Assembly: GCA_031372565.1 (NCBI GenBank)
Contig: JANMLN010000043.1
Span: 1 to 11,114 of the forward strand
Reading direction: 5' to 3'
Origin: Gemmatimonadota bacterium
Lineage (GTDB): Bacteria; Gemmatimonadota; Gemmatimonadetes; Gemmatimonadales; Gemmatimonadaceae
DNA length: 11,114 bases
Under the pieces are notes generated by a model. The model was not told the origin of the DNA. It saw nothing but the letters and a program-made list of their open reading frames with translations, and made no database searches. Below, piece after piece: positions 1 to 11,114 of the stretch. The position numbers and the translations under genes are program-made. Positions within the stretch are counted from its first letter, which is position 1, and each line of letters begins with the position of its first letter.

Positions 1-1
1 C

Positions 2-886
2 GATCCCGCGTTCGCGCAGGCGCATGCGGCGCTCGGCGAATCGTACATGACGCTTGCGCTGTACGGCGCGATGGCGCCTGCGGAAGCGGTGCCCGCCGCG
101 CGCCAGGCGCTGGACCGGGCCCTGGCGCTTCCCGCACAGCCTGCCGAGGCGCTGACGACGAGGGCCTGCATCGAGGCGGTCCATGAATGGGACTGGCGCC
201 GCGCGGAAGATGATTTCCGCCGTGCCATCGTCGCCAACCCCGCGTCACCGTCGTCGTCCCAGTGGTACGCCATGAACCTGCTGGTGCCACGCGGCCGGTT
301 CGGCGAGGCGCGCGAGCAACTCGCCCGCGCGCAGCTCATCGATCCCCTCTCCCCGGTGGTGTGGTTGAGCGTCGGCCTCTCGCACTTCTACGAGCGCGAT
401 TATCGAACGGCGATCGACACGTTCGACGCGCTGATCGAACGGGACCCGACGTTCGGCGTCGCCCGGATGTTCCTCGCCCAGGCGCTCAGCGTCATGGGCA
501 ACCACACCGCCGCCCTGGGTGCGCTCGACGGCGCCGTCCAGCTGATGGGCGAGAGCCGCGAGCTGCTGGCGGCACGCGGCGTCATCGCCGCGCGCAGTGG
601 CGACGAGGCCGGCGCTCGCGAAGCCCTTGCCACCCTCGAGGCGCGGGGGGCCACGCGCTACGTCTCGCCCGTGCTCATGGCGCAGGTGCAGGCGGCACTG
701 GGAGAGCACGCGGCCGCCGTGCGTTCCATCGAACGCGCGATCACGCTGCGCGCCAGCGATCTGGTGTGGGTGGGGGTGCGCCCCGTGTTCGACGCCCTTC
801 GCAACGTGCCCGGGTTCCTGCCCGCCATGGAGCCGCTCCGCTTGATGACCCGCTCCGGACCCTTCGCGGTGCCGCTCACGGCATAG
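2..886 (+). CDS. TPR-repeat protein, 5'-truncated; probably the C-terminal part of a TolB-like/TPR signalling protein (Ser/Thr kinase or cyclase associated)
   Basis: The frame is open from position 2 (DPAFAQAHAALGESY) before the ATG at 47, so the gene starts upstream of the window. It has repeated TPR-like helices (WDWRRAEDDFRRAIVANP, GRFGEAREQLARAQLIDPLSP, YRTAIDTFDALIERDPTF). The tail VRPVFDALRNVPGF resembles the 'DPxFDxLRxDPRF' end of this protein class. TAG at 884-886. Confidence 0.8.
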   Translation, partial: DPAFAQAHAALGESYMTLALYGAMAPAEAVPAARQALDRALALPAQPAEALTTRACIEAVHEWDWRRAEDDFRRAIVANPASPSSSQWYAMNLLVPRGRFGEAREQLARAQLIDPLSPVVWLSVGLSHFYERDYRTAIDTFDALIERDPTFGVARMFLAQALSVMGNHTAALGALDGAVQLMGESRELLAARGVIAARSGDEAGAREALATLEARGATRYVSPVLMAQVQAALGEHAAAVRSIERAITLRASDLVWVGVRPVFDALRNVPGFLPAMEPLRLMTRSGPFAVPLTA

Positions 887-900
887 GCAGCGCCGGCGCG

Positions 901-1287
901 CTACTGCGGCAGTGCGTAGTCGAACGTGTAGCGATGCACCTTCCCCTCGATCTCGATGCGGAACGTGCCGGCAATGCCGGCGAGTTCGCCGGTGCCGGAG
1001 TCTGGCACCACGCTGATGGCCAACTGCTGCGCACCGCGCGACATCGTACCGCTGTGCTGGAAGACGAACGTGCCGCGCTTCCCGCACAGCGTGCCCTCCA
1101 CGCGTTCGATCGCCACGTACGCGGCCGAGCCCTTGGTCTCGGTCATCGCCGTCAGCATCTCACCCGCGCCCGTGCCTGCGAGGTCCCCATGAAAGACCTT
1201 GTCGAGCCGGAAGCGCGCGGGGAGCGCGGCGGGTTCGGTGATCGGCGTCGTGGTGACATCGAAGGTGCCGGTGGCGACGAGCAGCAT
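901..1287 (-). CDS. DUF3224-like small beta-barrel protein
   Basis: Family-typical segments ATGTFDV, KVFHGDLAGTGAGEML, GSAAYVAIERVEGTL-G--GTFVFQH and VVPDSGTGELAGIAG. The ATG at 1287 (128 aa) fits the family N-terminus better than the GTG at 1317. Confidence 0.8.
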   Translation of the reverse strand: MLLVATGTFDVTTTPITEPAALPARFRLDKVFHGDLAGTGAGEMLTAMTETKGSAAYVAIERVEGTLCGKRGTFVFQHSGTMSRGAQQLAISVVPDSGTGELAGIAGTFRIEIEGKVHRYTFDYALPQ

Positions 1288-1380
1288 GGGGAGTTCCAAT
1301 GGAAGATGGACCGTCACGCGTGGCGCAGCAGGGCTGCAAGCTATGTCGGCCCGCGCTCACGACACAACGCGTGCGTGCGG

Positions 1381-2754
1381 CTAGAACGTTGCCGTGACCG
1401 AGACGAACCCCCACGTGTACGGCAGCGCTGCCCCCGTTGCGCGGAGGTAGTCGCCGGGCGTGAATCGCGCGACCCCGCCGTCAAGGCGCAGGTGTCGACC
1501 AACGCGCCAGATCGCCGTGAGGTCGGCCTCTCCACCGACGTCGCGCGGAGCGTTGGGGATGCTCGCACGCAGGACAGCACCCGTCACGTCATACGCGGCG
1601 TCGTCAACGCTCGCGCGCTGGAACGCGTGGACCGACGTTCGGATGCGCACCGAAGGCGTGGGCGACCACTGGCCGACGATTCGCTCCTCGATGGCGTTGC
1701 GCCGCCCGAGCACATCGGCGAAGCCCAGGAAGGCGTGCGCCAGCGGATACAGTTGGTCCCACGTGCCAGACTGCGCAGGCGCGCCCGCGCCCGTCCCGCT
1801 CGAGTAGTCCGCGCCGACGGTGATTGACGGAGCATGAGAACCGCCCCACGTCCGCGTCAGGTCGGAGACGAACATCCACGCCTGCACGGCGTTGCTACCA
1901 GCCGAGCCGACCTGCAGCCCACCCTCGAACTCATACGTCAACGCAGCGCCCGCCACTGCGCCGAGCGTGCGTGCCGCGATCGTCGTGCGCTGCGAAGCGG
2001 GCGCCGTGCCGGCCGCGTCAACACGCCGGACCAACGCATAGGCCTCGGTGATGGCACTTCCGCCCCGATCCCAGTTCACTTGGCCACCCCACAGACTCGT
2101 GTGCACGTCGGGCACGTTCATCCCGGCAGACACGATGTTCACCGGGTGCACCCAGAGCGCTGTGTACGCGAACGCGCCGGCCCGACCCTCGATCACGCCG
2201 CCCTGAAAGGTCCGACGCGCGTTCACCCAGTCGAGTGGCGACAGCACGCGCTCGCGACCGAAGAGAAGCTCCTGTCGGCCCAGCCGCACGGCCCAGTGAC
2301 CGGAGCCGATCGCGATGTCGCGCGCCTCCACGAAGCCCTGCTGCACATCCGCATCGTCGCGATCGGCCGTGCGGATGCCGCCGGGGAGGTCGCGGCCGCG
2401 TGCGCTCGCGACGCGCCCCTCGACGAAGGCACGCAGGTGGTCGGTCGCGTGGAGGTCGGCGTGGAGGTGAACCCGCACGAGTCCGAAGTTGTCCGTGCGC
2501 ACACCCGCGCCGCCGCCCAGGAAGTTGTCGTCGCGTTCGACGCGCGCGCGCACGTGACCGCCCAACGATAGCCAGGCCCCATCGTCCCACAGCGCGATGT
2601 GCTTCAGCGGATCCATGGCATCACCCGTCACCGGTTTCGACCAATCCTCCCGGTACCGGACCATCTCGTACGCGGGACGGGAGGCCGGGGCCTGAGCGGC
2701 AAGTGGCGCGACAGTCAGAGCAACCAGCATCGAGGAGTAGCGCACAACACGCAT
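1381..2754 (-). CDS. Alginate export (AlgE-like) family outer-membrane beta-barrel protein
   Basis: Signal peptide (MRVVRYSSMLVALTVAPLAA-Q). Family-like motifs RYREDWS, PLKHIAL, WLSLGGHVRARVE, RLGRQELLFGRERVLSPLDWVNARRTFQG and TWDQLYPLAHAFLG. Alternating beta-strand pattern and a C-terminal Phe (SVTATF). Confidence 0.8.
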   Translation of the reverse strand: MRVVRYSSMLVALTVAPLAAQAPASRPAYEMVRYREDWSKPVTGDAMDPLKHIALWDDGAWLSLGGHVRARVERDDNFLGGGAGVRTDNFGLVRVHLHADLHATDHLRAFVEGRVASARGRDLPGGIRTADRDDADVQQGFVEARDIAIGSGHWAVRLGRQELLFGRERVLSPLDWVNARRTFQGGVIEGRAGAFAYTALWVHPVNIVSAGMNVPDVHTSLWGGQVNWDRGGSAITEAYALVRRVDAAGTAPASQRTTIAARTLGAVAGAALTYEFEGGLQVGSAGSNAVQAWMFVSDLTRTWGGSHAPSITVGADYSSGTGAGAPAQSGTWDQLYPLAHAFLGFADVLGRRNAIEERIVGQWSPTPSVRIRTSVHAFQRASVDDAAYDVTGAVLRASIPNAPRDVGGEADLTAIWRVGRHLRLDGGVARFTPGDYLRATGAALPYTWGFVSVTATF

Positions 2755-2784
2755 GGGACAGGAGCCCCGGAAAGAGGAAGCCGA

Positions 2785-4035
2785 TCAGCGGAGTAGTGGA
2801 ACCGACGAGGGCGCATCACGTTGTGGCGCAGCCGCGTCGGCCGCGACGATCGCACCCGCGAGACGGGTGCGATCCGGCGGGATCCGGCGCTCCTGGTGAC
2901 GCACGATGCCATCCGCATCGAGCACCGTGATGATGTTCGAGTGCTCGAAGTCGAAGGACGGAAGCCGGCGATAGCTCACGCCCAGCAACGCGGCGAGCGT
3001 GCGGACGCTCGGCTGCGCCGCTGTGAGCAGGTGCCAGTGCGCATCGAGGTCCATGCGCGTGGCATAGGCGAGCAGCACGGCGGTCGAGTCGCGCCAGGAA
3101 TCGAACGACGCGAGTACGAAGCGCGTGCGCCCGCGCACATCAGCAGGCAGCGAGGCCTGCACCGCCTGCAGTTCGGCCGTGATCACCGGGCAGGTCATGG
3201 CGCACGAGAAGTAGACCATGGCGAGCACGACCGGTGCCCCGCGCAGCCCGGCGAGCGCAAACGGCGCGTCGGTCGCATCGGTCCACGTCGCGGGGACCGC
3301 GTACAACGATCCGCGCGGCACCGGCACTGTCGCCGCCGCTTGCGGTGGCCGCGCGGCCTGCAGATCGCGCGCGAGGCGAATGCCAAGGGAGCCGAGCGCG
3401 TACGACGCTCGCAGTGAGGCACGCAGCGCCGCCCGCATGAAGCCCGCGTAATTGGTAGGATCCGTTGCCAGCGCCGATCCGCCTGCACAGAAGAGCCCCG
3501 CGTCGGGATCTCCGTCACCACGCGACTCACCCGACGTGATCACGCTGTTGAAATCCTCCACCCACTCCCAGGTCTCGGGCCGCGCGATGGTCCCGGTCTG
3601 CATGTGGCCGCGCTCCAAGGCGAGCTCCCACTCGGCCGCGCTCGGTAGTCGCGCTCCCGCCCACTCGGCGTAGGCCGAGGCGGCAAACCACGACACGTAC
3701 ACCACGGGATCCCGGCCTGGTGCCGCACGGCCAAGCACCGTGTCGCCCGACCAGTGCCGCAGGTACGACGTGTCCGCCGCCATGCGCGCCACACGTGATC
3801 GCCGCCATTCGGGCCGCGCCACCACGAAGCGGCGGAACGCTTCGTTGCTGACGGGCTCCGTCGCGAGATCGAACGCGGCGACTGCCGACCGCCGCGCGAC
3901 GGTCGACGCGGCGTACAACGGGCGGATGCGACCCGCGGCCACGCGCTGCCAGCGCGGCGCCGGCTGCGCCGCGAGCACGGTCGCCGTCGCGCACAGCGTG
4001 GCGACGACCGCCGACAAGAGGCGATGCGGGCGCAT
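2785..4035 (-). CDS. Exported fusion protein: N-terminal FGE-sulfatase (NirV-like) domain plus C-terminal SCO1/SenC copper-chaperone domain
   Basis: Sec-type signal peptide. FGE-family motifs EPVSNEAFRRFV, PVVYVSWFAASAYAEWAGARLPSAAEWE, WEW and LGIRLARD (aa ~28-224). Pro/Ala-rich linker. SCO motifs LAGLRGAPVV, YFSCAMTCP (C278-x3-C282), SFDSWRDS and FEHSN (H365). The start ATG overlaps the nirK stop (TGATG). Confidence 0.85.
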   Translation of the reverse strand: MRPHRLLSAVVATLCATATVLAAQPAPRWQRVAAGRIRPLYAASTVARRSAVAAFDLATEPVSNEAFRRFVVARPEWRRSRVARMAADTSYLRHWSGDTVLGRAAPGRDPVVYVSWFAASAYAEWAGARLPSAAEWELALERGHMQTGTIARPETWEWVEDFNSVITSGESRGDGDPDAGLFCAGGSALATDPTNYAGFMRAALRASLRASYALGSLGIRLARDLQAARPPQAAATVPVPRGSLYAVPATWTDATDAPFALAGLRGAPVVLAMVYFSCAMTCPVITAELQAVQASLPADVRGRTRFVLASFDSWRDSTAVLLAYATRMDLDAHWHLLTAAQPSVRTLAALLGVSYRRLPSFDFEHSNIITVLDADGIVRHQERRIPPDRTRLAGAIVAADAAAPQRDAPSSVPLLR

Positions 4036-5579
4036 CAGTCGTGTCCCGCACCGCCGGCCTTCGGGACGTACTTGCCGGACGCACGGACTCTCCGCACGTC
4101 GGCGACGGTCACGCCGTCACCTGCGTTGCCGAAGGCGCCGCGCACGTACGTGAGGACCGCGGCGATGTCCGCATCCTTGAGCTGGAGCGAAGGCATCACG
4201 TTGTTGTACGTCTTGCCGTTCACCTGGATCGCCCCGGACAGGCCGTGCATCACGACGCCGATGGAGCGCTCCTTGTTGGCGAGGAGGAAGTCGCTCCTCG
4301 CGAGGGGTGGAAAGGCGCCCGCCACGCCCTGTCCGTCGAGCTGGTGGCAGGCCACGCAGTTGCCGGCGAAGAGTTGCTTGCCGCGCGCGAGCAACTCGTT
4401 CCGCGACGGCTCCCTGGTCATGGTCAACGCCTTGGGGGTCACCGCAATCGCACTCGGCACGGCCTGCACCGTGCTGCCCTCGGGGAGGTAGACGAAGTCG
4501 CCCTGCTTGCCCGAGTAGACCGCGACGTTCTGCGGCACCTCCACCTTGATCATGCCCAGCGCGCCCTTGTTGAAGGCGCGAAAGATCGAGTGGTCCACAA
4601 GGATGAACGTCCCGGGCACGTCGAACGTCATCTCGACAATCGCCGAGCCGCCTGCGGGAATGAGCGTCGTCTGCCCGTTGCGCTGGTTCGCGACCGACCC
4701 GCCCTCGGTGTAGATGCGGTCGAAGATCTCGCCGATCACGTGGAAGCTCGAGACGAGGTTCGGGCCGCCATTGCCGACAAAGAGGCGCACCGTTTCGCCG
4801 ACCTTCGCGTGGAGCGCGTTGTCGCCGACGAGGGCGCCCACCGAGCCGTTGAACACCACGTAATCGGGCTTCTCGTCGAGCGCCTTCTCCATCGCGAAGC
4901 TCTGCAGTCCGGGCTCGCCGTGCTTGCCCATGGTATAGAACTCGCTCTGCAGCACGTAGTACTCGCGGTCGACGGGCGGCAACCCTTCTTTCGGCTCGAC
5001 CAGGATGAGGCCGTACATGCCGTTGGCGATGTGCATGCCGACCGGCGCCGTGGCACAGTGATAGACGTACAGGCCCGCGTTGAGCGCGGTGAAGCTGAAC
5101 TGCGAACTGTGCCCCGGAGCGGTGAACGACGACGCAGCGCCGCCGCCAGGCCCGGTGACCGCATGCAGATCAATGTTGTGGGGCATGTGGCTTGACGGGT
5201 GGTTGTTCAGATGGAACTCCACCTCGTCCCCTTCGCGGATCCGGATCATCGGTCCCGGCACCGAGCCGCCGAAGGTCCAGAACGTGTATTCCACGCCGTC
5301 CGAGAGGCGTTTCGTGAGTTCACGCGTTTCAAGGCTGACGACGAGCTTGGCCGATGTGCGTCGCATGATCGGCGGCGGCACCTGCGGGGCAAACGTGACG
5401 GCGAGCGTTTCAACCGGCAGCGGCCCGCGTGCCGCTGCGGTGAGCGTGGGCCAGGCGCCGCCGACGGTGCCTGCGGTGCGGAGAGCGCCGTCACGTCCCG
5501 CAGCGAGTGCATGTCCACCGAGCGCGACCGCGGCGCCAAGGGACAGGGTGGAGAGGGTCAAGGAAAGGCGGGGCGTCAT
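4035..5579 (-). CDS. nirK: Copper-containing nitrite reductase (AniA-like) with fused C-terminal cytochrome c domain
   Basis: Type-1 Cu ligands H134/C175/H183/M188, type-2 Cu ligands H139/H174/H330 and catalytic D137/H280, found in [35 protein letters not shown] and LVDHS. Heme motif CVACH (408-412) with a likely distal Met in VMP (M462). N-terminal signal peptide. GAGGA ribosome site at 5584-5588. Confidence 0.96.
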
Positions 5580-5583
5580 GCGA

Positions 5584-5588
5584 TCCTC
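5584..5588 (-). promoter_or_regulatory. Shine-Dalgarno site of nirK
   Basis: The minus strand reads GAGGA-TCGC-ATG; the spacing is short (4 nt). Confidence 0.55.
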
Positions 5589-5628
5589 ACGAGGTGTGGC
5601 CCGCCATGCGGGCGTTTCATATCTGATT

Positions 5629-5649
5629 ACATCATGAGCATGTCAGCTT
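5629..5649. promoter_or_regulatory. Candidate Rrf2 operator upstream of nirK
   Basis: ACATCATGAGCATGTCAGCTT is 16/21 identical to 6202-6222 upstream of rrf2. It is an AT-rich island 49 nt from the nirK ATG. Confidence 0.6.
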
Positions 5650-5654
5650 TATGC

Positions 5655-5680
5655 GATGGCACCCGCGCAGGGGCGCCGTC
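5655..5680 (-). terminator. GC-rich hairpin just after the rrf2 stop; possible weak terminator or processing structure
   Basis: The minus-strand RNA GGCGCCC-CUGCGC-GGGUGCC forms a 7-bp stem with one G-U pair, plus 2 more pairs after a mismatch. There is no U-tract. Confidence 0.25.
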
Positions 5681-5684
5681 CCGA

Positions 5685-6155
5685 TCAGGATCGTCGTCGC
5701 CCCGCCACGTCCGCACGCGCACGAGCGGCGAACGGCCGCGCCCAGGACGCGGTCGGCGGACCCGCGGCCATGTCCGCGATCGTCGTCGTACGAAAGAAGG
5801 CGGTGACCTGGCTCGAGACACCCTGCCAGCGCTCGTGCGCCGGACACGGATTCTTGGCGGAGCACTCGGGACGGCCGAGCAGACAGTGCGGCCGCTCGTC
5901 GATCACCTCGAATGGCGCGATGACGTCGTGCAGTCGGATCGTCACGGCCGACCGCCCGAGAGAAAAACCACCCGACTTGCCGCGCGTGGACCTGAGGACC
6001 CCCGCTCGTGCGAGCTGATGCAGCGTCTTGGCGAGATAGTTCTGCGGAATTCCGAGCGCCGCGGACAACGGAGCAACCTGCACGAGCTCCCCCAGCGGTT
6101 GCTGCGCAATGAAGACCACGGCACGGAGCGCGTATTCGGCAGTCTGGGAGAGCAT
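5685..6155 (-). CDS. Rrf2-family transcriptional regulator with a predicted Fe-S cluster (3 Cys + His)
   Basis: Rrf2 N-terminus MLSQTAEYALRA (ATG at 6155), recognition helix IPQNYLAKTLHQL, wing STRGKSGGFSL and cluster motif C91-x6-C98-x5-C104-x2-H107. Confidence 0.93.
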   Translation of the reverse strand: MLSQTAEYALRAVVFIAQQPLGELVQVAPLSAALGIPQNYLAKTLHQLARAGVLRSTRGKSGGFSLGRSAVTIRLHDVIAPFEVIDERPHCLLGRPECSAKNPCPAHERWQGVSSQVTAFFRTTTIADMAAGPPTASWARPFAARARADVAGRRRS

Positions 6156-6201
6156 CGGGCGGTCGGGGTAAAGGTGAACTCCCGGAATATTGAACCTGTT
6201 A

Positions 6202-6222
6202 ACATCATCCACAAGTCATCTT
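6202..6222. promoter_or_regulatory. Candidate Rrf2 autoregulatory operator
   Basis: ACATCATCCACAAGTCATCTT lies inside the imperfect palindrome TTAACATCA-N8-TCATCTTAA (6199-6224), 46 nt from the rrf2 ATG, and matches the nirK upstream site. Confidence 0.6.
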
Positions 6223-6264
6223 AAATGGAGCGGCCCGACGCCATTCCCTGACAGTACCTGTGTC

Positions 6265-6293
6265 TTGACACTCTGTGTTGTAACACATACTCT
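6265..6293 (+). promoter_or_regulatory. Sigma70-type promoter of the MarR gene, probably giving a leaderless mRNA
   Basis: Perfect TTGACA (6265-6270), a 17-nt spacer, TACTCT (TAnnnT, 6288-6293), then only 5 nt before the ATG at 6299. No Shine-Dalgarno sequence. Confidence 0.7.
6274..6287. promoter_or_regulatory. Candidate MarR operator (inverted repeat)
   Basis: TGTGTT-GT-AACACA is a perfect 6-2-6 palindrome lying between the -35 and -10 boxes. Confidence 0.65.
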
Positions 6294-6298
6294 CCAGC

Positions 6299-6766
6299 AT
6301 GCCGCTCACGCTCCGCCCCGAAAGCCGAACGGCGCGCCCCTTCACCTCCCTCGAGCAGGAGGCGCACCTCAACATCGTGCGCGCCGCGCTCGAACTCGAC
6401 GCAGACCTGGACGACGTGCTCAAGCCCTCCGGCATCAGCAGCACCCAGTTCAACGTCCTCCGCGTCCTGCGGGGAGCCGAGCCGGACGGGCTCTGCCGAG
6501 GCGAACTCGGGCTGCGCCTGCTCGGCCGGATGCCGGACGTGACACGCATGCTCGACCGGTTGGAGGCCATGCATCTCGTGCACAGGCAGCGGGAAGTGAC
6601 CGATCGCCGTCAAGTTCGCACGCGCATCACCACGCGCGGGAGCGCCCTGCTGGCCGACGTCGATGCGCACGTGGAGGCGGAGCATGCGCGTCGGCTCGCG
6701 CACCTGGGTCCGAGAGACCTCCGCACGCTGGTGGCGTTGCTGACGCGCATCCTGCAGCCCGAGTGA
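6299..6766 (+). CDS. MarR-family winged-helix transcriptional regulator
   Basis: Motifs LKPSGISSTQFNVLRVL, PDVTRMLDRLEAMHLVHR and the wing DRRQVRTRITTRG; 155 aa. Confidence 0.92.
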   Translation: MPLTLRPESRTARPFTSLEQEAHLNIVRAALELDADLDDVLKPSGISSTQFNVLRVLRGAEPDGLCRGELGLRLLGRMPDVTRMLDRLEAMHLVHRQREVTDRRQVRTRITTRGSALLADVDAHVEAEHARRLAHLGPRDLRTLVALLTRILQPE

Positions 6767-6845
6767 CCTCAAGGCGACCGCGCCTCGAACCGATGCGCGA
6801 TGCCTTGATCACCGACAGCGTTTCCGCCTCCACGAGGACACAACC

Positions 6846-7796
6846 ATGAGCGCCAGCACCCCCGCACTCTTCGGCGACACGCCACGCGCCGAGCCCGCAA
6901 CGCCGGGTAGCTACGGCGAACCGCCGCGCGGATACCGGCTCCCCGCAGCGACGCGCCTCGGCGCGGTGCACCTGCAGGTGGCCGACCTCGCGCGCTCGGT
7001 TGCGTTCTATGAGGGCACGCTCGGTTTCGCTGTCGCGGCGCGCGACGCGCAACGTGCCGTCCTCACCGCGCAGGACAGCGACCGTACGCTCATCGAACTG
7101 CACGAACGGCGGGGCGCCAAGCCGGCGGGACGGCGCGCGCAGCTCGGCCTTTTTCACGTCGCCATCCTCCTGCCCGAGCGCGCGTCGTTGGGCCGCTTCC
7201 TCCGTCACATGACCGCGCTGGGCGTACCGGTCGGCGCGGGCGATCATCGTGTCAGCGAAGCACTCTACCTCAGCGATCCGGATGGACTGGGCCTCGAGGT
7301 GTACGCGGATCGGCCGCGCAACACATGGCAGCGCCTCGGTCGCGAGCTGATGCTCGCCACGGACCCGGTGGACATGGGAGGGCTGCTCGACGCCGCCGGC
7401 GATGCGACATGGACCGGCATGCCTGCGGGCACGACGATCGGCCACGTGCACCTGCACGTGGGCGACATCGAGATGGGCGCACGGTTCTACGCCGATGCGG
7501 TCGGCTTCGACAAGATCACGTGGCGCTACCCTGGCGCACTCTTTCTGGGAGCGGGCGGGTATCATCATCATCTGGGCACCAATACGTGGGCAGGCCCCGA
7601 CGCCCCGAGCGCAGACGAAAACGATGCGCGGCTGATCGCGTGGACGATCGAACTCCCCGATGCGGCGAGCGTGGCCGAGGTGACCGCCAGCCTGCTGGCA
7701 GGCGGCTACGACGTGGCGCGCGAGGGCCCGCACAGCGCGAGCACCGATCCCTGGGGAACGAAAGTCGTGTTCGCCGTGGCCAAGGTGCCGCACTGA
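6846..7796 (+). CDS. Two-domain VOC/glyoxalase-family protein, CatE-like catechol 2,3-dioxygenase
   Basis: Motifs LGAVHLQVADLARSVAFY, GLFHVAILLP, DHRVSEALYLSDPDGLGLEVYADRP, IGHVHLHVGD, GGYHHHLGTNTW and DPWG. GAGGA at 6834-6838 lies 7 nt before the ATG. The substrate cannot be established from sequence. Confidence 0.88.
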   Translation: MSASTPALFGDTPRAEPATPGSYGEPPRGYRLPAATRLGAVHLQVADLARSVAFYEGTLGFAVAARDAQRAVLTAQDSDRTLIELHERRGAKPAGRRAQLGLFHVAILLPERASLGRFLRHMTALGVPVGAGDHRVSEALYLSDPDGLGLEVYADRPRNTWQRLGRELMLATDPVDMGGLLDAAGDATWTGMPAGTTIGHVHLHVGDIEMGARFYADAVGFDKITWRYPGALFLGAGGYHHHLGTNTWAGPDAPSADENDARLIAWTIELPDAASVAEVTASLLAGGYDVAREGPHSASTDPWGTKVVFAVAKVPH

Positions 7797-7803
7797 CGTC
7801 GAC

Positions 7804-7828
7804 AGCGCGTGCACCAGCGCACGGCGCT
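7804..7828. terminator. Imperfect hairpin between convergent genes
   Basis: AGCG-CGTGC / loop ACCAGC / GCACG-G-CGCT gives 9 bp with one bulge, in the 41-nt gap between two stop codons. There is no U-tract on either strand. Confidence 0.25.
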
Positions 7829-7837
7829 ACACCCGGA

Positions 7838-9097
7838 CTACTCCGGAGCGACGTCGGCGGCCTGCCGCTTGGCCAGCATCGATAGCGCCGGCGGTGTGAC
7901 GAACGTCGTGCCGAGCACCATCACCATGATCGCGCCGAACTCCCCGGCATCGATCGCGCTGGCGGCGAGTCCCATCTGCGCGAAGATGAGCCCGACCTCT
8001 CCACGCGGCACCATCGCCACGCCCACGAGCAGCTTGTTCCCCGTGTACCACCACGGCGCAAAGCCGGCCGCCACCTTCCCGGCAATGCCGATCACCAGCA
8101 GCACGGCGCCAACCTGGAGACTGCGCGGATCGAGCAGCGCGCCAAGGTTCACGGCGGCGCCCACGCTCGCAAAGAAGATCGGGACGAAGAGGTACCCGAG
8201 CGTCCTGGTCTTCTCCTCGATGTCGGCGCGTTGCGGTGTGGGATGCAGCACGACCCCAGCCGCGAACGCGCCAATGATCATCGCCGAACCGGCGCGATCG
8301 GCCAACCAGGCCAGCAGAAAGGCGACGGCAAGTCCGATCAGGCCGATGGCGCTCGCGGAGTCGATCCGGCCAACGGCGCGAAGCAGCGGCGGGACGGCAC
8401 GATTCCCCACCAGCAGGCTCGCGCCGACAAAGCCGATGGCGACCCCTGCCACCTTGGCCACGTGGCCCGCCGTCAATGACTCGCCGCCGGCCAACGACGC
8501 GATCACGCTCAGGATGATGAGGCCCACGACATCATCGAGTACCGCGGCGCCGAGCACGACCTGTCCGTCGCGCTGCGCGAGGAGTCCGAGGTCATCGAGC
8601 ACGCGGGCGGAAATCCCCACGCTCGTGGCCGTGAGCGCCGCCGCTCCGACGAGCGCCGGCACCAGCGCGAGCCCCATCGCGTGCAGCGCGAGGTAGCCGC
8701 CCGCAAACGGCAGGATGACACCGGCGAGCGCCACCGTGACGGCGACACTCCCCACGGCAGCGAGTGCCTTGAGGTCGGTGTGCATCCCGATGTCGAAGAG
8801 CAGGATCAGCACGCCGATCTCCGCGAACGCCTGGACGGCAGGGTCGGCGGGATCCAGGACGCCGAGCACCGACCGGCCCAGCAGCACACCAGCCACCAGT
8901 TCGCCAAGCACGGCCGGCTGCCCCAGGCGCTGAGCCGCGTAGCCGAGCACCGACGTGGCGAAGATCGTGGCCACGAGCGCCAGCAGAAACGCCTGCACGC
9001 CCGCGCCGGTGGCCGCGCCCGCGAGCACGAGCGGCGCGGACACGACGAGCGCGATCCGGACGCGGCGCGCGGACCACGCAGCGCGCCCGATGGCCAC
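7838..9097 (-). CDS. Cation:proton antiporter, CPA2 (NapA/KefB-like) family, membrane domain only
   Basis: Highly hydrophobic. Motifs RLGQPAVLGELVAGVLLG, AEIGVLILLF-IG, ATSVGISARVL, GAAVLDDVVG, FVPIFFASVG and GVAMVPRGEVGLIFA. The GTG start overlaps the speA stop (TAGTG); the exact start is less certain. Confidence 0.9.
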   Translation of the reverse strand: MAIGRAAWSARRVRIALVVSAPLVLAGAATGAGVQAFLLALVATIFATSVLGYAAQRLGQPAVLGELVAGVLLGRSVLGVLDPADPAVQAFAEIGVLILLFDIGMHTDLKALAAVGSVAVTVALAGVILPFAGGYLALHAMGLALVPALVGAAALTATSVGISARVLDDLGLLAQRDGQVVLGAAVLDDVVGLIILSVIASLAGGESLTAGHVAKVAGVAIGFVGASLLVGNRAVPPLLRAVGRIDSASAIGLIGLAVAFLLAWLADRAGSAMIIGAFAAGVVLHPTPQRADIEEKTRTLGYLFVPIFFASVGAAVNLGALLDPRSLQVGAVLLVIGIAGKVAAGFAPWWYTGNKLLVGVAMVPRGEVGLIFAQMGLAASAIDAGEFGAIMVMVLGTTFVTPPALSMLAKRQAADVAPE

Positions 9098-11103
9098 TAC
9101 CGCGCGGCCTCGCCCTCGAGGTACGTGTATCCCTCGAGTCCGGCCACGTAGTCGGCGATGAAACCGTTGGCCTCGCTGCGCTCCATGCCGACCGCGTTGC
9201 CCACCTTGCGGCGGAAGGTGGCCAGCAGATCCGAGGCGCGGTACTGCACGTAGTTGAGCACTTCGGTCACGGTGTCGCCGTGCACGAGATCGCTCACCGT
9301 GTGCCCGTTCTCGGAGAGGCGCACGTGGACGGCGTTGGTGTCGCCGAAGAGGTTGTGCAGGTCGCCGAGAATCTCCTGGTACGCGCCCGTGAGAAAGATC
9401 CCGAGCATGTACGGATCGACGTCGTTGAACGTGTGGAGCGCGAGCGACGCCTCGCCGTCGACGAACCGGTCGATCTTGCCGTCGGAGTCACAGGTCACGT
9501 CCTGGATGGTGCCGCGACGGGTGGGCTCCTCGTTCAGCCGGTGGACCGGCATGATCGGGAAGAGTTGGTCGATCGCCCACGAGTCGGGGAGCGACTGGAA
9601 CAGCGAGAAGTTGCAGAAGTAGCGGTCGGTGAGTGCCGACGACAGTTCGCTGAGGATGTCGGCATACTCGTCGCGATCGCGCTGGCAGAAGCGCGCCAGC
9701 TCGTTGGCCGTGCCGAGGTAGTACTGCTCGGCCTTGGCCCGCTCGCGCAGCGAGAGGACGCCGCTGGCGAAATACGACTGCGCGCGCCCCTTGTGGTGCT
9801 CGATGTCGTGATGGATCTCGCGCACGCGTCGCGGGCTGCGCAGCCGCTTCGTGCTGATCGTCTGGTACTCCTCGTACATCTCGTGCAGGATGTTGTGCTC
9901 GTCGTCGGTCGGGGCCGGGACTTCGGGCATCACCTGCGACTCGACGTCGATGACGTTGAGCAGGAGCAGCGCGTGGTGGGCCGTGAGCGCGCGCCCGGAC
10001 TCGCTGATCAGGTGCGGCATCGGCAGGTCCTGCTCGCGACAGGCCTCGGCCATCGTGTAGACGATGTCGCCTGCGTACTCCTCGAGCGAGTAGTTGGTGC
10101 TGGCCTGTGCGGTGGAGTTGGAGCCGTCGTAGTCGACGCCCAGGCCGCCGCCCACGTCCACGTGCGTGATGTCGAGCCCGAGCTTGCGGAGCTCGGCGTA
10201 ATAGCGCGTCACTTCCTCGAGCGCCGCCTTGATGTAGCGGATGTCGGTGATCTGCGATCCGAGATGGAAGTGGATCAGCTTGACGACGTCGAGCGCATCC
10301 TCGGCCTTGAGCTTGTCGAGGACGCGCACGAGTCCCGCCGGCGACAGCCCGAACTTGGACTTCTCGCCACCCGACTGCGCCCAGCGGCCAGCGCCCTCGC
10401 TGTGCAGCTTGATGCGAATGCCCGCCGTGGGACGCACCCCCATCTCGCGGGCCGCCTGCAGCAGCACGTCCACTTCGGAGAGCTGCTCGAGCACGATGAA
10501 CACGCGGTGACCCAGCTTCTGGCCCATGAGGGCGAGCCGCATGAACTCGTCGTCCTTGTAGCCGTTGCAGACGATGATGTGGTCCGTGCTCTCGGAGAGC
10601 CCGAGCACGGCCTGCAGTTCGGGCTTGGAGCCCGCCTCGAGGCCGACGCCGGTGGCCCGCCCGAACTCGACGATTTCCTCCACGACGTGGCGCTGCTGAT
10701 TGACCTTGATCGGAAAGACCGTCGTGTACTCGCCCGTGTACTCGTACTCCTTGATCGCACTGGCAAACGCCTCGTGCAGCTGGCGGATGCGCGAGTCGAG
10801 GATGTCGGAGAAGCGGAGCAGCACGGGCAAGCCGACGCCCTGCTGCTCGAGGTCCCGGGCGATCTCGTAGAGGTCGACCGCCTGCTCGGGCCGGTTGCGA
10901 TCGGGCCGCACGACCACGTGCCCCGCGGCATTGATGTCGAAGAAGCCCGCGCCCCACCCTTCGATGTTGTACAGCGTCTTGGCGCTCTCGATCGTCCACG
11001 GCCCCGTGGGGGGCGCGGGCGGGCCGCCGTGGCCGTTGACGGGCGCGCTGGCTGGGGACGCGCCGGCGGCCGCCGGCGGCGTGAGTGTTTCGGGGCTGGT
11101 CAT
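9097..11103 (-). CDS. speA: Biosynthetic arginine decarboxylase (PLP-dependent, fold type III)
   Basis: PLP lysine motif FPIKVNQ, plus GLEAGSKPEL, HFHLGSQI, DVGGGLGVDYDGS, SESGRA, NFSLFQSLPDSWAIDQLFPIMP, TCDSDG and GAYQEILGDLHNLFGDTN; 668 aa. Confidence 0.96.
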   Translation of the reverse strand: MTSPETLTPPAAAGASPASAPVNGHGGPPAPPTGPWTIESAKTLYNIEGWGAGFFDINAAGHVVVRPDRNRPEQAVDLYEIARDLEQQGVGLPVLLRFSDILDSRIRQLHEAFASAIKEYEYTGEYTTVFPIKVNQQRHVVEEIVEFGRATGVGLEAGSKPELQAVLGLSESTDHIIVCNGYKDDEFMRLALMGQKLGHRVFIVLEQLSEVDVLLQAAREMGVRPTAGIRIKLHSEGAGRWAQSGGEKSKFGLSPAGLVRVLDKLKAEDALDVVKLIHFHLGSQITDIRYIKAALEEVTRYYAELRKLGLDITHVDVGGGLGVDYDGSNSTAQASTNYSLEEYAGDIVYTMAEACREQDLPMPHLISESGRALTAHHALLLLNVIDVESQVMPEVPAPTDDEHNILHEMYEEYQTISTKRLRSPRRVREIHHDIEHHKGRAQSYFASGVLSLRERAKAEQYYLGTANELARFCQRDRDEYADILSELSSALTDRYFCNFSLFQSLPDSWAIDQLFPIMPVHRLNEEPTRRGTIQDVTCDSDGKIDRFVDGEASLALHTFNDVDPYMLGIFLTGAYQEILGDLHNLFGDTNAVHVRLSENGHTVSDLVHGDTVTEVLNYVQYRASDLLATFRRKVGNAVGMERSEANGFIADYVAGLEGYTYLEGEAAR

Positions 11104-11114
11104 TGCACGGAAAC

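Follow-up and report, generated by a model that had tools for sequence, protein, structure and literature searches.

In a large fraction of the bacteria that live in soil, in sediment, or with a host, the committed step of denitrification is carried out by NirK, an enzyme that bears on nitrogen loss and on the emission of nitric oxide (NO) and N2O. The way in which its two copper atoms are obtained has been worked out for Neisseria alone, via AccA. The question of what might serve NirK in other bacteria is raised by an 11,114-nucleotide (nt) stretch of DNA from a Gemmatimonadota bacterium (GenBank assembly GCA_031372565.1, contig JANMLN010000043.1, positions 1 to 11,114 of the forward strand; hereafter the window), in which the gene after nirK encodes a NirV-like domain and a SCO domain in one polypeptide (P0001; the NirK of the window is P0002). 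Analysis of this nirV-sco fusion gene and its relatives identified it as a minority form of a widespread three-gene operon, not a one-off, with nirK, nirV, and sco forming a conserved cluster in at least 15 phyla. P0001 is built from two known families, and what it exposes is a conserved, overlooked nirK accessory module, here considered as a candidate for supplying NirK with copper.

The nirV-sco fusion gene and its two domains

The fusion gene occupies positions 2785 to 4035 on the reverse strand as a single open frame of 416 amino acids (aa) with no internal stop. An original prediction, made from the sequence of the window alone, had described this uninterrupted frame and expected a Pfam scan to return both of its domains; both were found above their cutoffs, FGE-sulfatase (PF03781) at residues 41 to 145 (E value, 8.7e−21; 75.2 bits; cutoff, 23.3) and SCO1-SenC (PF02630) at residues 252 to 376 (profile positions 7 to 132 of 134; E value, 9e−9; 35.8 bits; cutoff, 22.8). 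The coordinates that it had assigned to domains, linker, and motifs were all correct, as was the TGATG coupling to nirK, where the ATG of the fusion gene shares one base (A) with the nirK TGA (gacTGATGcgc). From the N terminus and all on the reverse strand, P0001 comprises a predicted Sec signal peptide, read off the sequence and modeled as a helix over residues 3 to 20 (residues 1 to 23; positions 3967 to 4035), a NirV-like domain of the formylglycine-generating enzyme (FGE) fold, assigned from PF03781 and FGE structure matches (residues 28 to 232; 3340 to 3954), an 18-residue Pro/Ala linker, LQAARPPQAAATVPVPRG (residues 225 to 242; 3310 to 3363), and a SCO domain, assigned from PF02630, Foldseek, and VIA (residues 243 to 400; 2836 to 3309). 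An AlphaFold2 model had a mean predicted local distance difference test score (pLDDT) of 87.5 and a predicted template modeling score (pTM) of 0.80; for two domains on a short linker, the latter suggests a defined mutual orientation. P0001 is therefore best described, from its predicted features, as a secreted soluble periplasmic protein in which a NirV-like domain is covalently tied to a SCO-type thioredoxin-fold domain.

Structure comparisons placed the C-terminal domain among SCO proteins. Foldseek gave template modeling scores of 0.84 to 3me7 and of 0.80 to 0.81 to two targets, human SCO1 (1wp0) and B. japonicum ScoI (4wbj), and VIA returned SCO-family chains with Z scores of 16.5 to 20.1 (the best, 20.1, with a root mean square deviation of 2.2 over 158 aligned residues), above generic thioredoxin-like proteins (Z of at most 15.2). 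The domain carries the motif C278-A-M-T-C282-P283 (3187 to 3204, reverse strand), the sole C-x3-C in P0001, and His365 within FEHSN (2941 to 2943, reverse strand) at the position of the SCO distal ligand. C278, C282, P283, D316, and H365 were each conserved in all 100 aligned rows, and the positions of C278, C282, and H365 are those of the established copper ligands of SCO proteins. In a FastTree analysis, the nirK-linked SCOs formed a clade of their own, one branch with 98% support setting them apart from nine canonical Gemmatimonadota SCOs. A canonical SCO gene is present in the genome of the window as well (G000:C76:8365-9281, reverse strand); in a genome-wide search it scored 101.9 bits against the Pfam SCO profile versus 38.8 bits for the fused copy, and it adjoins a PCuAC gene, the two being the usual chaperone pair for oxidase assembly. 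The fused SCO thus has the thioredoxin fold, C-x3-C-P, and distal His in common with SCO1, SenC, PrrC, and ScoI of cytochrome oxidase CuA assembly, but differs from them in its separate clade, its low Pfam score, the lack of a membrane anchor of its own, and its tie to nirK rather than to an oxidase; it is presumed to serve type 1 and type 2 copper sites instead of CuA. In 36 of the 100 relatives, a CC, CxC, or CxxC motif lay upstream of C-x3-C-P, either in the N-terminal part of the SCO (e.g., L010, L018, and L062) or in the linker of fused forms (e.g., L001 and L002). Some of these may fall within signal peptides, and P0001 has none; in the relatives that carry them, they may form an additional copper-binding tail.

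The NirV-like domain is more divergent from its Pfam profile, the PF03781 match covering only profile positions 23 to 127 of 255, with the C-terminal half detected by a phmmer comparison with 6muj. This half-length match follows from a clade-specific deletion of about 36 residues around residues 150 to 154 (3574 to 3588, reverse strand), seen in an alignment of 100 family members: 8 of the 100 rows (the clade of the window and, in part, P0009) have fewer than 25 residues here, against a family median of 40. In the model, pLDDT falls below 50 at residues 149 to 151. The domain matched FGE chains 6muj and 2q17 and, over model residues 25 to 225, the FGE-like domain of SenA (8k5i) with a VIA Z score of 12.0, in a whole-model search that was weighted mostly to the SCO domain. 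The FGE-motif cysteines (YLC..SYC in the Streptomyces chains 6muj and 2q17), the copper-binding catalytic pair of FGE, align with Ala190 and Ala197 of P0001, so that the active-site Cys pair of catalytic FGEs is absent. P0001 shares the family PF03781 and the RLP..EWE and WEW motifs with SUMF1/FGE, and is set apart from it by these two replacements, its predicted periplasmic location, and the absence of a sulfatase context. The NirV-like domain is accordingly a member of the FGE superfamily and not a formylglycine-generating enzyme. NCBIfam returned only subthreshold matches to SenA (53.5 bits; cutoff, 420) and EgtB (45.1 bits; cutoff, 360), and none of the profile libraries searched held a curated NirV model.

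Relatedness to classical NirV was instead established by profile comparison. Aligned with hhalign, the NirV-like family matched Rhizobium phaseoli NirV with a probability of 96.8% (E value, 2.7e−10; 155 columns), at a remote identity to classical NirV of 23 to 31%; the domain of P0001 by itself matched Phaeobacter NirV only with an E value of 6e−4. Cys183 (3487 to 3489, reverse strand), which aligns with a Cys of R. phaseoli NirV, was conserved in 100 of 100 aligned rows and is the only invariant Cys of the NirV-like family. It sits after a conserved loop, GESRGDG.PD (residues 167 to 181), of low model confidence. The classical alphaproteobacterial NirV (Rhodobacter sphaeroides, Rhizobium, and Phaeobacter) resembles P0001 in its FGE-sulfatase fold, in being secreted, in its position right after nirK, and, in R. 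phaseoli, in the single conserved Cys. The two classical loci that were checked (Phaeobacter and R. phaseoli) have a clade I NirK, 35 to 40% identical to P0002, and no SCO gene after nirV, whereas here the partner NirK is of the AniA/cytochrome-c-fused type and SCO follows or, as in P0001, is fused.

A frameshift or misassembly joining two separate genes could produce such a frame. Where nirV and sco are split, they often share 4 nt, and one indel could then imitate a fusion; moreover, one database entry is an artifact of precisely this kind: P0130 (695 aa), an apparent NirK-NirV fusion with Cu-oxidase and FGE domains by Pfam, was rejected as a frameshifted gene call, since in its middle the cytochrome c region is translated in the wrong frame, giving a stretch rich in Arg, Gly, and Pro, and the signal peptide of NirV is retained. 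For P0001, by contrast, the same single frame was found in G377, a genome of the same genus (74% identity over residues 1 to 408), and in P0004 to P0007, which come from several public sources, carry both Pfam domains, and are 71 to 74% identical to P0001 by alignment. Against the G377 ortholog, the ratio of nonsynonymous to synonymous substitution rates (dN/dS) was 0.16 for the NirV-like domain and 0.15 for the SCO domain, compared with 0.41 for the linker, which is relaxed relative to both, 0.75 for the C-terminal tail, and 0.99 for the signal peptide, as expected for such a sequence; with dS near 1 these values are rough, although the contrast is clear. Both domains are under purifying selection. 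The original prediction had also called for a read check over positions 3300 to 3370, and Logan contigs from three runs spanned this interval with 0 differences and 0 gaps, the three runs belonging to one study and two of them possibly being the source of the DNA of the window. Among the runs listed as containing this DNA, none is recorded as RNA.

The junction itself carries the trace of how the two genes were joined. Separate SCO genes of relatives each begin with their own signal peptide or lipobox, and neither a hydrophobic stretch nor a lipobox was seen at the junction of P0001, in keeping with what had been predicted. In the closest unfused relative (L005/L085, from genome G284 of the same genus), the nirV stop is followed by a 58-nt spacer and by sco with its own signal peptide. 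All three are gone in the window, and the linker in its second half (..QAAATVPVPRGSLY) is similar to the start of the mature SCO encoded separately in L005/L085 (..QAAPLPARSLY). Stop, spacer, and signal peptide were therefore lost cleanly upon fusion, the signal peptide by deletion rather than by read-through. Together with its retention in a second species and the selection on both domains, this bears out the earlier view that the fusion is real and not a lost stop codon. As far as sequence data go, the artifact is refuted, and we regard it as wholly improbable.

A conserved nirK-nirV-sco cluster and its repeated fusion

The two domains had been expected to occur usually as separate genes near nirK, and two genome scans bore this out. 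In the first, which used whole P0001 and is biased to loci matching both domains, 70 of 80 loci had split nirV then sco and 6 were fused; in the remaining 4, the contig ended before a SCO could appear. Directly upstream was nirK in 72 of these loci; it lay elsewhere in the locus in 2, and the other 6 had less than 100 nt of upstream sequence. The second scan used an alignment of NirV-like proteins only and found at least 605 relatives among 619 candidate stretches. Its best 80 loci comprised 72 split and 3 fused forms, placing a SCO domain directly downstream in 75, along with 4 loci without SCO within 700 nt and 1 that was cut. Within the same 80, nirK was directly upstream in 77 (2 were cut upstream and 1 had no nirK upstream), and 75 of the NirKs carried a cytochrome c domain. 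The scans share some contigs and so are not independent samples; together they cover 159 loci from at least 15 named phyla, mostly Verrucomicrobiota. Of the 70 split pairs, 38 overlapped by 4 nt, which points to coupled translation of nirV and sco.

Within the phylum of the window, 401 evenly sampled Gemmatimonadota genomes were searched; one of them (G157) is flagged as unpublished and affects none of the counts. The nirK-nirV-sco arrangement was found in 16 of them, SCO adjoining every one of the 16 clear NirV matches, and the fused form was confined to the genome of the window (G000) and G377. A plasmid search with the NirV-like domain returned 122 records, 117 of them from Ralstonia, and included Azoarcus sp. 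KH32C. The two that were inspected, a Ralstonia solanacearum megaplasmid and Azoarcus pAZKH, have loci annotated as nirK, "formylglycine-generating enzyme family protein," and "SCO family protein." The cluster is likewise present in Bdellovibrio bacteriovorus and Frateuria terrea, and Chthoniobacter flavus Ellin428 and Oligoflexus tunisiensis are further carriers. The unfused operons of Ralstonia, Azoarcus, Bdellovibrio, and Frateuria match the window in their three genes and gene order and have a 4-nt nirV/sco overlap; they encode two polypeptides, each with a signal peptide, whereas the window encodes one, which lacks a second signal peptide and whose NirV-like domain is shorter. A different partner was seen in an Ignavibacteriaceae locus, where nirV is followed by a DUF6448 protein (L126:4313-4906, forward strand; 191 bits; HCDGLDGP motif) instead of SCO.

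The original prediction had reasoned by Rosetta-stone logic, and this applies strongly here, since fusion occurred more than once. In a tree of concatenated NirV and SCO columns from 100 proteins or operons (quick search with Shimodaira-Hasegawa-like approximate likelihood ratio test support), the 18 fused rows needed six changes by parsimony, and well-supported branches forced at least four independent fusions. Fused forms fell in the Gemmatimonadota clade of the window (7 rows) with P0009 beside it, in a Verrucomicrobiota clade (5 rows), in two Planctomycetota, in P0010 with P0011, and in one proteobacterium. A count of the architecture had likewise been suggested: when 1.84 billion representative proteins were searched, a single match ran through the junction in 31 of the best 150, and with P0009, P0070, and P0115, which are fused by Pfam, there are at least 34 fused clusters at 50% identity. 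Seven further candidates (P0072, P0105, P0111, P0145, P0152, P0156, and P0162) were rejected as multi-FGE, dockerin, or caspase proteins with no connection to nirK.

Proposed copper supply to NirK and alternative roles

A 2026 study describes how AccA, a PCuAC chaperone, loads the type-1 copper of AniA, a NirK closely related to P0002, and states that NirK bacteria without AccA have no identified alternative chaperone (PMC13006917). Elsewhere, NirV is described as having an unknown activity (PMC10356946) and as not mandatory for NirK maturation (PMC4770552), its role in copper insertion was already raised as a possibility in a 2021 review (PMC8139620), and the one paper found to mention the two Ralstonia genes after aniA labels them no further than as "putative signal peptide-encoding genes" (PMC4453514). 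The searches, which covered open-access literature, yielded no account linking NirV or nirK with SCO, be it as a pair or as a fusion. What is new here is the systematic link between NirV and SCO; the idea that NirV takes part in copper insertion is not itself new. AccA does the job proposed here for P0001, periplasmic copper insertion into an AniA-type NirK, and is unrelated to it in fold and family; it is not known to be encoded beside aniA.

On account of the nirK linkage, the recurrent fusion, the distinct SCO clade, the conserved ligand residues, and the selection on both domains, we cautiously favor the nirV-sco module being a periplasmic copper-delivery module dedicated to NirK. The SCO domain would take up copper at Cys278/Cys282/His365 and hand it to newly exported apo-NirK, while the NirV-like domain would give the module its specificity for NirK, either by docking on NirK, as the original prediction had proposed, or by Cys183 relaying copper or binding it transiently, or in both ways. 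P0001 is the one-polypeptide version of a pair of genes, nirV then sco, that comes after nirK in many phyla and is co-translated with it. Extended to the whole family, NirV and a dedicated SCO paralogue could constitute the copper metallochaperone system so far missing for NirK enzymes of the AniA type and for those fused to cytochrome c, with the NirV Cys and the SCO Cys-Cys-His acting as a copper relay that loads NirK; this broader proposal is tentative and may well prove wrong. If true, the relay would give NirV a function, 25 years after its naming. With the fusion recurring and the nirK-nirV-sco order almost constant, what was a loose speculation becomes a specific hypothesis, one that names C183, C278, C282, and H365 and is testable in cultured, tractable organisms carrying the operon. 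Annotation pipelines could label nirV and sco as nirK accessory genes.

Several observations weigh against a dedicated role in copper delivery. The genome of the window also has its canonical SCO beside PCuAC, so copper chaperones are not otherwise missing, and its NirV-like domain lacks the approximately 36 residues kept by nearly all relatives. NirK scored above the family cutoff in 50 of the 401 Gemmatimonadota genomes, and the query used here detected the module in only 16 (about one-third) of them. In a Verrucomicrobiota locus (L025:4748-7463), nnrS, nirV, sco, and a Crp/Fnr regulator follow one another in this order and nirK lies about 5 kb off on the opposite strand, and L020 is the same on both counts by its layout. 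Loss of the classical nirV in Rhodobacter sphaeroides reportedly gave no clear phenotype. SCO proteins can also be thiol-disulfide reductases, and sequence alone cannot tell these roles apart.

The last point leads to the alternative that we consider next in plausibility, albeit unlikely, namely that the SCO domain is a TlpA-like thiol-disulfide oxidoreductase that maintains Cys183, or the type-1 copper Cys of apo-NirK, in the reduced state, for instance once NO produced by NirK has oxidized or S-nitrosated it, with copper entering NirK unaided. The SCO fold is a thioredoxin fold, and thiol-disulfide oxidoreductases matched the model with Z scores of 12 to 15, just under the SCO chains; exactly one invariant Cys in the NirV-like domain would suit a mixed-disulfide partner, and some SCO proteins are known to act as reductases. 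However, His365, a copper ligand that is dispensable for thiol chemistry, was kept in every aligned row, the nearest structures are SCO copper chaperones rather than TlpA or ResA, and the extra CC-type motifs in the flexible SCO N terminus or linker of 36 relatives are typical of metal handling.

A module with several clients is harder to reconcile with the gene order. Here, nirV and sco would buffer or route copper for NnrS, Nor, NosZ, and oxidases, or protect against NO, and adjacency to nirK would reflect shared regulation only. The nnrS-linked loci, with nirK on the other strand, fit such a role, as does the presence of the module in only 16 of the 50 nirK-bearing genomes of the phylum sample. 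Against it stand the immediate upstream position of nirK in 77 of the best 80 loci of the NirV-only scan, the spread over at least 15 named phyla, and the frequent overlap of stop and start codons; such tight, ancient adjacency to one structural gene would be unusual for a general factor, and we judge this explanation quite improbable. Less likely still in our estimation is an enzymatic role, in which the NirV-like domain would be an FGE-like oxidase or an EgtB-like sulfoxide synthase modifying NirK or a small molecule, the SCO domain supplying its copper cofactor. The FGE fold, the weak matches to SenA and EgtB, and the fact that bona fide FGE is a copper enzyme speak for it. The motif cysteines are replaced by Ala190 and Ala197, however, both NCBIfam scores are far under their cutoffs, and the clade of the window tolerates a 36-residue deletion in the domain, all of which make such an activity highly unlikely. 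Copper delivery to NirK remains the role that we favor for the module.

Neighboring genes in the window

The nirK gene (4035 to 5579, reverse strand) encodes a 514-aa NirK with a C-terminal cytochrome c domain (TIGR02376, 353.5 bits; cutoff, 296.3), the Cytochrom_C domain lying at residues 398 to 480. P0002 is 66% identical to gonococcal AniA over 297 residues. Its H134, H139, H174, C175, H183, M188, and H330, which we take to be the copper ligands of NirK, were invariant among 45 aligned NirKs, and its CxxCH motif was invariant or nearly so in the same alignment. On the same strand and 105 nt upstream of nirK lies a gene for an Rrf2-family regulator of the NsrR/IscR-like type (5685 to 6212; Pfam Rrf2, 97.5 bits; NCBIfam rrf2_super, 108.5 bits). 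It has a C-x7-C-x5-C motif and probably senses NO or nitrite for the cluster in the manner of NsrR.

Downstream of the fusion gene by 30 nt, an Alginate_exp-family outer-membrane porin is encoded at positions 1381 to 2754 on the reverse strand (PF13372; 210.6 bits). A porin of this family was found on the same strand in 17 of the 159 related loci (including L005, L118, L119, L129, and L169) using a homemade hidden Markov model, and it directly followed nirV in three of the four loci without sco. Within the cluster, this porin could provide a channel for nitrite or copper. A scan of positions 1200 to 6900 for promoters and terminators gave nothing above chance.

Between the Rrf2-family gene and a glyoxalase-family gene (6846 to 7796, forward strand), positions 6213 to 6845 hold overlapping open reading frames of 155 to 219 aa on both strands; those at 6190 to 6849 (forward strand) and 6221 to 6772 (reverse strand) had no Pfam match, and the latter had no NCBIfam match either. 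Farther along, positions 7838 to 11103 on the reverse strand carry a Na+/H+ exchanger gene and a biosynthetic arginine decarboxylase gene, assigned by Pfam, which are housekeeping genes unrelated to the fusion.

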